Shown here: positions 20,315-21,739 of the stretch, in pieces
Numbering within the stretch: the stretch's first letter is position 1
Layout: each line of letters begins with the position of its first letter
Assembly (NCBI RefSeq): GCF_016026235.1
Contig: NZ_CP065613.1
DNA: 64,000 nucleotides
From: Escherichia coli
GTDB taxonomy: Bacteria > Pseudomonadota > Gammaproteobacteria > Enterobacterales > Enterobacteriaceae
Strand: one strand, 5' to 3'
Notes under the pieces: model-generated
Seen by the model: only the letters and a program-made list of their open reading frames with translations
The model's database searches: none
Told to the model about the DNA's origin: nothing
Translations under genes and position numbers: made by a program

Positions 20315-21739
20315 TAATGCCAGTCAGTTAAGCAACTGACTGGCTCTTTTTCGGGGCTGTGGGGTATTTCCAGGGCCTCTCCTTTACCACTCTCGGGAAG
20401 GCCCTTCCCCTTCTCGTCGGTAATTTCACAAGTTGTCCCATACTTGCAAGATCGCGCATCAGCTCCGGTATACGTCCCGGTGAAGCGCCCTGCAATGTCA
20501 TCAGCATTCTCATCACCATTCCGCATGATTCTGAGAAACTCAGTTGATTCGGCCAGTAACCTTTCAGATGTTCCGCCATTTTAATCATCTGATATCTCAC
20601 CAGATTATAAGCCAGTAAGACACCCCACAGCTCTTGCTCCACAAGCTCCGGCTTTTTACTTCTCAGCGTCAGCCTGCTCAGTTGCATCGTCTGTTTTATC
20701 TCCCTGTATCCCAGTTCGATTTCCCAGCGATGACTGTACAGATCCGCCATTTCTCCTCCGGGGAAGCGCATGGCGTCCGTCATCGACGTCAGCAGATGGC
20801 AGACTTTTCCTTTGCGCGTCACGGTCAGCAGGCGGGCTGTCACTTCATTTCCCAGTCCCGGCCACTTTTTTCGTGCCTGCGGGCTGGTTTTCAGCTTCAC
20901 CAGATGATCGCCTTTACCCAGTTTTCTGAGCTCTTCATATTGCGCTCCCTTTCTGAGAGGTATCATCCAGTGGCGGTGTTCTCCCGCCAGGCTCCAGGCA
21001 TTTAACAGTCCCAGTGAGTAATAACCTTTATCCATTAACGTCAGAGTGTTATCGCCGGTTTGTTCTATAAGTTGCTCAGCAAGCTCATTTTCGCTGTTCT
21101 TCATCGTGCCGAAGGCTGCAGCCGTCAGCAGATGGCTGGTCAGTTCCATCTGGCAGACCATTTTGACCTGCGGGTAGAGCGCCGGGTTCCCGGCATGTGT
21201 CTGGCGGGGAAGGCTGCATCGTTCTCTGGTGTATCCGGTGTGCGCCAGAACACACCATCGATGGCCAGCAGGGTCAGGCCGCACCAGTGCGGATGCGGCG
21301 TGGCGTTATGCCAGAGCTGCGCTGTTTTCGTGAACACGCGGCGGACAGCCTCACTTCCCAGGCGCTGGCGGGCCTGAATAACGGCACTGGGGGCAACGAA
21401 GGGGCGATTGCCCGGCAGCATGATGTCCAGGCGATTCACAATCTGGTGAAGAGGTTCTTTACGCTCAAGCGCCATGCCAACAATACACCAGACCATCATT
21501 TCGAGGGGAAGACGGCGCTTGCGTAGCGTTACAGTACCTGATTCGGCAAGGCAACGAGAGATGAGTTCGGGGTCGAGGTAATCCCCCAGAGAAGTCAGTG
21601 GGTTACGCAGAGAATCGTAACGGGATACCAGATCAAGAGCCTGTCCAATGTGCATAAAAAAATCCGGAAACAAGTGAGCGTTTCCGGATTCTTACACAGC
21701 CACTGGATCGGTCAACTGATCCTTAACTGATCGGCATTA
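20315..21739 (-). mobile_element. IS4 insertion sequence (1425 bp) with 12-bp target duplication CACCAGCAGACC
   Basis: Ends taatgccagtcagttaag... (20315-) and ...cttaactgatcggcatta (-21739). Identical 12-mers caccagcagacc at 20303-20314 and 21740-21751. Carries an IS4-family DDE transposase. Confidence 0.93.
20328..21655 (-). pseudogene. insG: IS4 transposase (InsG-like), split by a frameshift
   Basis: N-terminal ORF 21140..21673 (MHIGQALDLVSRYDSL...[22 protein letters not shown]...) and C-terminal ORF 20328..21284 (...[19 protein letters not shown]...[14 protein letters not shown]...) overlap in different frames. The frame switch maps near the G4 run at 21206-21209. Confidence 0.85.

Follow-up and report, generated by a model that had tools for sequence, protein, structure and literature searches.

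Background

The closest described relative of the element examined here is the IS4 copy of Escherichia coli K-12 (insG, b4278). The IS4 family is defined by a transposase that is encoded in a single ORF without a frameshift and that displays the D(60-110)D(100-150)E spacing and the Y(2)R(3)E(6)K signature; for the IS4 subgroup, a length of 1400-1650 bp and direct repeats of 10-13 bp are given (PMC2266710). Genes of the IS1 and IS3 families that employ a programmed -1 frameshift consist of two overlapping ORFs, and the one lying downstream is read in the -1 frame; the IS4 copy described below shares this organization. The transposases of IS10 and IS50 act mainly in cis, and the Inh protein of IS50/Tn5 is an N-terminally truncated inhibitor that is made from a dedicated internal start within an intact gene. 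Frame breaks at homopolymers in IS copies are known to be routine, are already flagged by standard annotation and carry little biological weight.

The IS4 copy and its insertion site

When examining a window of 64,000 nucleotides (the whole stretch of DNA that was analysed) from an E. coli assembly (GCF_016026235.1, contig NZ_CP065613.1), we delineated an insertion sequence within a gene for a transporter of the MFS class, with the following features:

20315..21739, minus strand: IS4 insertion sequence of 1425 bp, against 1426 bp in the intact element
21722..21739, minus strand: left terminal inverted repeat of IS4, TAATGCCGATCAGTTAAG
20315..20332, minus strand: right terminal inverted repeat of IS4, an imperfect inverted copy of the left end
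20303..20314: target-site duplication, copy 1, GGTCTGCTGGTG on the minus strand, 12 bp
21740..21751: target-site duplication, copy 2, 12 bp
19262..20314, minus strand: MFS transporter gene, 3' part (the intact gene in FDAARGOS_943 encodes 396 aa)
21740..21889, minus strand: MFS transporter gene, 5' part, with a 50-aa product that terminates at a TAA in the IS4 end

Judging by its sequence, the element at 20315-21739 is an ordinary IS4 of the IS4 family and IS4 subgroup. It is 99.5% identical to the K-12 IS4 at the nucleotide level over the full length, an identity at the level of iso-forms, with six substitutions separating the two apart from a run-length difference, and it has the same terminal inverted repeats; together with the matches of its translated products to the Pfam domains Nterm_IS4 and DDE_Tnp_1, this bears out the original identification of the element as IS4. 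Its length (1425 bp), its inverted repeats (the left and right ends agree in 16 of the 18 positions) and its 12-bp direct repeats are all those of the IS4 subgroup. An IS4 copy on pCFSAN029787_01 is the same as the one described here base for base, except for a single C. A search of the window with the end sequence detected no second IS4 end.

The insertion lies in the MFS transporter gene between inaA and a LysR-family regulator gene and thus differs from the K-12 site. Both flanks are E. coli chromosome, with nrdAB-yfaE-inaA on one side and the LysR-family regulator gene, glpQ and glpT on the other; the regulator gene (22054-22932) is divergent from the split transporter gene that it adjoins. 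The two parts of the MFS gene add up to the length of the intact gene (150 + 1053 - 12 = 1191 nt). Of the complete genomes in RefSeq, FDAARGOS_943 comes closest; it shares 99.9% identity with the window and has an empty IS4 site, and the alignment to this site shows a 12-bp overlap, as the target duplication predicts.

With a junction-spanning query, the insertion of IS4 in the MFS gene was absent from 5,426 complete RefSeq genomes of E. coli. When the truncated MFS products (50, 65, 70 and 347 aa) were looked up by exact match, dozens of contigs from drafts, Logan and metagenomes came back, from which it follows that the insertion is the mark of a real and widespread E. coli clone. Among the assemblies found in these look-ups, only GCA_900449985.1 spans this IS4 copy; the other contigs of the clone reach only the IS4 end or extend a few hundred bases into the element, short of the C run discussed below. 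Because short-read assemblies of the clone are interrupted at this IS4 or within it, IS4 must be a multi-copy element in those genomes.

The split transposase and the site of the frameshift

The original prediction held that the transposase is covered by two overlapping ORFs in different frames, separated by the loss of a single base that was placed in a run of four G. All three parts of this claim stand: both ORFs are present on the minus strand, the sole indel against the references is one C, and alignment to the references locates it in the plus-strand G4 at 21206-21209:

21140..21673, minus strand: N-terminal transposase fragment, TTG start at 21673, 177 aa, stop codon at 21140-21142
20328..21284, minus strand: C-terminal transposase ORF, 318 aa
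21206..21209, minus strand: site of the frameshift, a run of four C (plus-strand G4) at codons 149/150 (between AAFP and RQ)

The plus-strand sequence of 21200-21216 is TCTGGCGGGGAAGGCTG. The references that we aligned were the K-12 IS4 (NC_000913 4502090-4503515, with a single insG CDS), the chromosomal copy of an O121 genome and the copy on pCFSAN029787_01; the only indel within the element relative to these is the replacement of TTCCCCCGCC, found in all three, by TTCCCCGCC in the window, that is, four C residues instead of the five that occupy IS position 531-535 in K-12, O121 and pCFSAN029787_01. The proposed check, whether a reference IS4 has five bases at this run, is thereby answered in the affirmative for each of the three. 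An offset of 389 nt between the frames of the two ORFs (2 mod 3) fits the loss of one base. The pattern is not a product of chance.

Within the N-terminal ORF, a K-12-type ATG at 21655 gives a product of 171 aa, and the native residues continue through Pro149, followed by 22 out-of-frame codons. This ORF, which encodes a DNA-binding-domain fragment, matches the Pfam domain Nterm_IS4 (E = 8e-34) and carries the first catalytic aspartate, D133 (LLAIDG). In the C-terminal ORF, the native InsG sequence begins at approximately 21205, just downstream of the C run; this part matches DDE_Tnp_1 (E = 5e-28) and holds D209 (LMDKGY), E314 and the YREK signature at residues 307-321. The break at codon 149/150 therefore parts the first catalytic aspartate from the second aspartate and the glutamate, and from what is required by the DDE mechanism, neither fragment is expected to be an active transposase; as recorded, the two-part ORF would be unable to make the enzyme.

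Once a single C is added back, the same 442-aa protein as in K-12 is obtained, with D133, D209 and E314 separated by spacers of 75 and 104 residues, so that both the DDE spacing and the YREK signature of the family are present in the restored protein. A single transposase ORF is found in the K-12, O121, pCFSAN029787 and GCA_900449985.1 copies and is missing in the window copy; this is therefore a lesion or an error of the one copy rather than a property of the element. A reference IS4 with the same two ORFs had been named in advance as the observation that would speak against the original prediction, and K-12 insG and the other intact copies turned out to be single ORFs. The arrangement is not conserved among IS4 copies: the references have one ORF and C5 predominates.

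Near-identical genomes

The most informative comparison is with GCA_900449985.1 (UGFA01000002.1), in which the same IS4 occupies the identical position and the same IS1 is also present upstream of yfaL. Over 23,102 bp, this sequence shows zero differences from the window except for C5 at the run, and it contains the intact 442-aa ORF. Two further assemblies are 100% identical to the window, with no indels, over 21,983 bp (GCA_000805835.1) and 13,360 bp (GCA_050054195.1). Taken together, the comparisons with these three near-identical, independent assemblies revealed no other indel or homopolymer discrepancy in approximately 58 kb of the window. The window as a whole contains 33 G/C runs and 226 A/T runs, each of at least five bases. 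FDAARGOS_943 differs from the window by only two one-base indels, both intergenic according to the FDAARGOS_943 annotation and at least one of them specific to FDAARGOS_943. The concern, raised with the original prediction, that other homopolymers of this assembly might be untrustworthy is thus not borne out, none being discrepant in the part compared, and the C4 site gives no reason to distrust the remaining homopolymers here. The site is, rather, a useful quality check on an assembly that can be trusted outside repeats.

The C4 allele in public genomes

A 62-nt query centred on the C run had matches in 2564 E. coli records. The best match had a one-base gap, equivalent to C5, in 2546 of these records, and only 17 records, all complete, contained an exact C4 copy. 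The exact 171-aa product of the C4 allele was found on at least 131 public contigs of the protein collection, and its TTG-start form on nine more; the carriers are named S. sonnei, S. flexneri and E. coli, and the insertion sites are many. C4 is not tied to one IS4 haplotype: several carry it, and one of these is the K-12 haplotype in its K-12 location. The allele has therefore arisen, or been called, repeatedly, and a single propagating C4 lineage is rejected on these grounds. IS4 copies that PGAP labels 'frameshifted' in E. coli and Shigella carry the identical C4 allele at other insertion sites, but many of them bear further indels or substitutions, whereas the window copy has only the C4 change.

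As a control, we looked up contigs encoding the products that are predicted for one-base indels at the other runs of the transposase gene, with the following counts, which are confounded by clonal inheritance and sequencing error:

G5 at 153, deletion: 106 contigs
C5 at 347, deletion: 65 contigs
C5 at 347, insertion: at least 1000 contigs
C5 at 531 (the frameshift run), deletion: 131 contigs
C5 at 531 (the frameshift run), insertion: 14 contigs
Five 4-nt runs, deletions: 1 to 37 contigs

Counts for the two remaining 5-nt G/C runs are similar or higher, so run 531 is not a unique hotspot; it appears as one of three equivalent weak points of the gene.

Several observations indicate that some of the C4 alleles are genuine. 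Orthologous C4 copies are common to Shigella assemblies whose flanks are approximately 1% diverged (two pairs), and many carriers are contigs of less than 10 kb, probably from short-read assemblies; both argue for real C4 alleles. Other observations point to errors. The C4 call recurs in visibly error-laden public assemblies, with five E. coli copies that have extra one-base indels elsewhere, and a series of PacBio assemblies of Shigella from 2018 (GCA_0029494xx-0029681xx) shows varying deletions at IS4 positions 153, 232, 336, 347 and 531 on different haplotypes; these shifting combinations look technical. Real alleles and errors both contribute to C4 in the public data. The G/C 5-mers of IS4 are, then, recurrent sites of miscalls or mutations in public assemblies, the evidence suggests that many public annotations of 'frameshifted IS4' are homopolymer miscalls, and counts of such copies in long-read genomes of Shigella and E. 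coli need to be read with caution.

In a scan of species-representative genomes for the C4-or-C5 pattern, the only match was C5, in the MAG contig JAEYLX010000016.1. This contig, binned as 'Bacillota bacterium', has the IS4-type C5 sequence at 5366-5401, at the end of its 5.5 kb; probably this is enterobacterial DNA that was binned wrongly or entered as a contaminant.

Origin of the missing base

The two alternatives that had been considered originally, a copy that cannot transpose autonomously and a sequencing or assembly error, are the two that still stand. We lean slightly toward the error: there is, in our estimate, about an even chance that the missing C was under-called in the consensus, at a G/C homopolymer located in a multi-copy repeat, in which case the real DNA would carry C5 and an intact insG, as in GCA_900449985.1. 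The length of G/C homopolymers in repeats is the typical residual error of long-read, 454 and hybrid-polished assemblies, under-calls predominating among sequencing errors; repeats escape short-read polishing, so that residual homopolymer errors persist there. Two otherwise indistinguishable sequences differ only in the length of a G/C run within a repeated element, which favours an error in the consensus. The recurrence of C4 in error-laden assemblies and the common indels at all three 5-nt G/C runs count on the same side, whereas the genuine C4 alleles that exist, in short contigs and in diverged Shigella orthologues, count against it. Another point against the under-call is that the window is otherwise free of indels over the approximately 58 kb compared and that its IS1 copy, too, is identical. 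On balance, we infer a technical rather than biological origin of the difference.

A real and very recent loss of one C by replication slippage, after the split from the strain of GCA_900449985.1, is a serious competitor to which we give somewhat less than an even chance. The IS4 copy would then be a non-autonomous pseudogene, mobile only if an intact IS4 supplied the transposase in trans. The lack of any further homopolymer discrepancy in approximately 58 kb of the window speaks for a real mutation. So does the presence of the identical allele on several IS4 haplotypes, on contigs that are probably short-read, at orthologous sites in diverged Shigella assemblies and at numerous points of insertion, among them the K-12 site in GCA_022180085.1. 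PGAP labels such copies as 'frameshifted' pseudogenes, and since the IS ends and the target duplication are intact, mobilization in trans is physically possible. However, this scenario requires a hit in one 5-nt run during a divergence that left no substitution in 23 kb, and substitutions generally outnumber such indels among spontaneous mutations. In addition, should the cis preference of IS10 and IS50 extend by analogy to IS4, a defective copy would be nearly immobile. If the loss is real, this copy is unable to transpose alone and the disruption of the MFS gene is the more stable for it.

Functional interpretations of the split gene

Conceivably, by analogy with Inh, the frameshifted allele might be maintained by selection, with the 171-aa N-terminal fragment or the C-terminal fragment acting as an inhibitor of IS4 transposition in trans. 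Like Inh of IS50/Tn5, which belongs to the IS4 family, such a fragment is a truncated derivative of the transposase and could, in principle, interfere with the full-length enzyme; the difference is that the truncation in the window IS4 is an accidental break of the frame. The recurrence of the allele on many haplotypes and in many genomes, especially those of IS-rich Shigella, and the retention of the whole Nterm_IS4 domain in the N-terminal fragment are compatible with such a role, but run-length-dependent slippage or sequencing error explains the recurrence equally well and the other G/C 5-mers show the same behaviour, so we consider selection very improbable. A broader version of the same analogy, in which the three 5-nt G/C runs would serve as mutational off-switches, releasing an N-terminal, end-binding fragment that would tame IS4 in IS-rich genomes, appears similarly far-fetched.

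That the two-ORF layout is functional, with ribosomes programmed to shift to the -1 frame at the C run and, as in IS1 and IS3 elements, yielding a low level of full-length transposase, we regard as improbable in the extreme and reject, given the single-ORF references, the definition of the family and the lack of both a heptamer and a downstream structure. The tRNA-Pro would have to slip back on C_CCC. Judging by the sequence, the native protein would be restored exactly if the peptidyl-tRNA moved by -1 on CCC, and C4 copies do occur at several sites within single genomes. However, the junction reads GCC TTC CCC GCC, in which TTC CCC G does not conform to the heptamer pattern X XXY YYZ; no canonical slippery heptamer is present anywhere in the overlap at 21140-21284; and the 96 nt examined for a stimulatory RNA structure downstream have a minimum free energy of -30.9 kcal/mol compared to a shuffle mean of -29.0 (z = -0.60, not significant). 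Unlike the programmed genes of the IS1 and IS3 families, this IS4 thus has neither these signals nor a split that is conserved among copies. The scarcity of C4 in the E. coli records that contain IS4, the one ORF of the K-12 element and of the other intact copies, and the comparable indels seen in other homopolymers of the gene also weigh against programming.

Other features of the window

A genuine two-ORF frameshift arrangement does occur in the same window, in an IS1 of 768 bp (13135-13902) located just upstream of yfaL and flanked by the 9-bp target duplication TAAGACGGC at 13126-13134 and 13903-13911. GCA_900449985.1 and GCA_050054195.1 have this IS1, whereas GCA_001907535.1 and FDAARGOS_943 lack it, so it is either younger than the IS4 insertion or has been lost in some members of the clone. 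The neighbouring yfaL is intact in the window (9350-13102, 1250 aa). In FDAARGOS_943, an IS5-family element with an annotated programmed frameshift resides inside yfaL (29617-30533, corresponding approximately to window position 12661), and its absence from the window indicates that the IS loads of the two genomes differ in this region.

At window position 3910, a G-to-A change makes a stop codon (TAG) of the TGG at codon 552 of yfaA (DUF2138), so that 551 of the 562 aa of the product remain; this stop is common to the near-clonal assemblies and hence is real rather than an assembly error. An ORF at 29949-30920 occupies the position of a transposase that is annotated as ISNCY-family in FDAARGOS_943, and repeats of approximately 115 nt at 30664-30889 and 30919-31120 show 89-93% identity to shifted positions; the ORF and the repeats are both present in FDAARGOS_943 as well. 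Finally, two 90-nt stretches lying side by side between nrdA and nrdB (16869-17045) each match the position of the other in the relative with 92-93% identity and may represent an intergenic repeat of the REP/BIME type.
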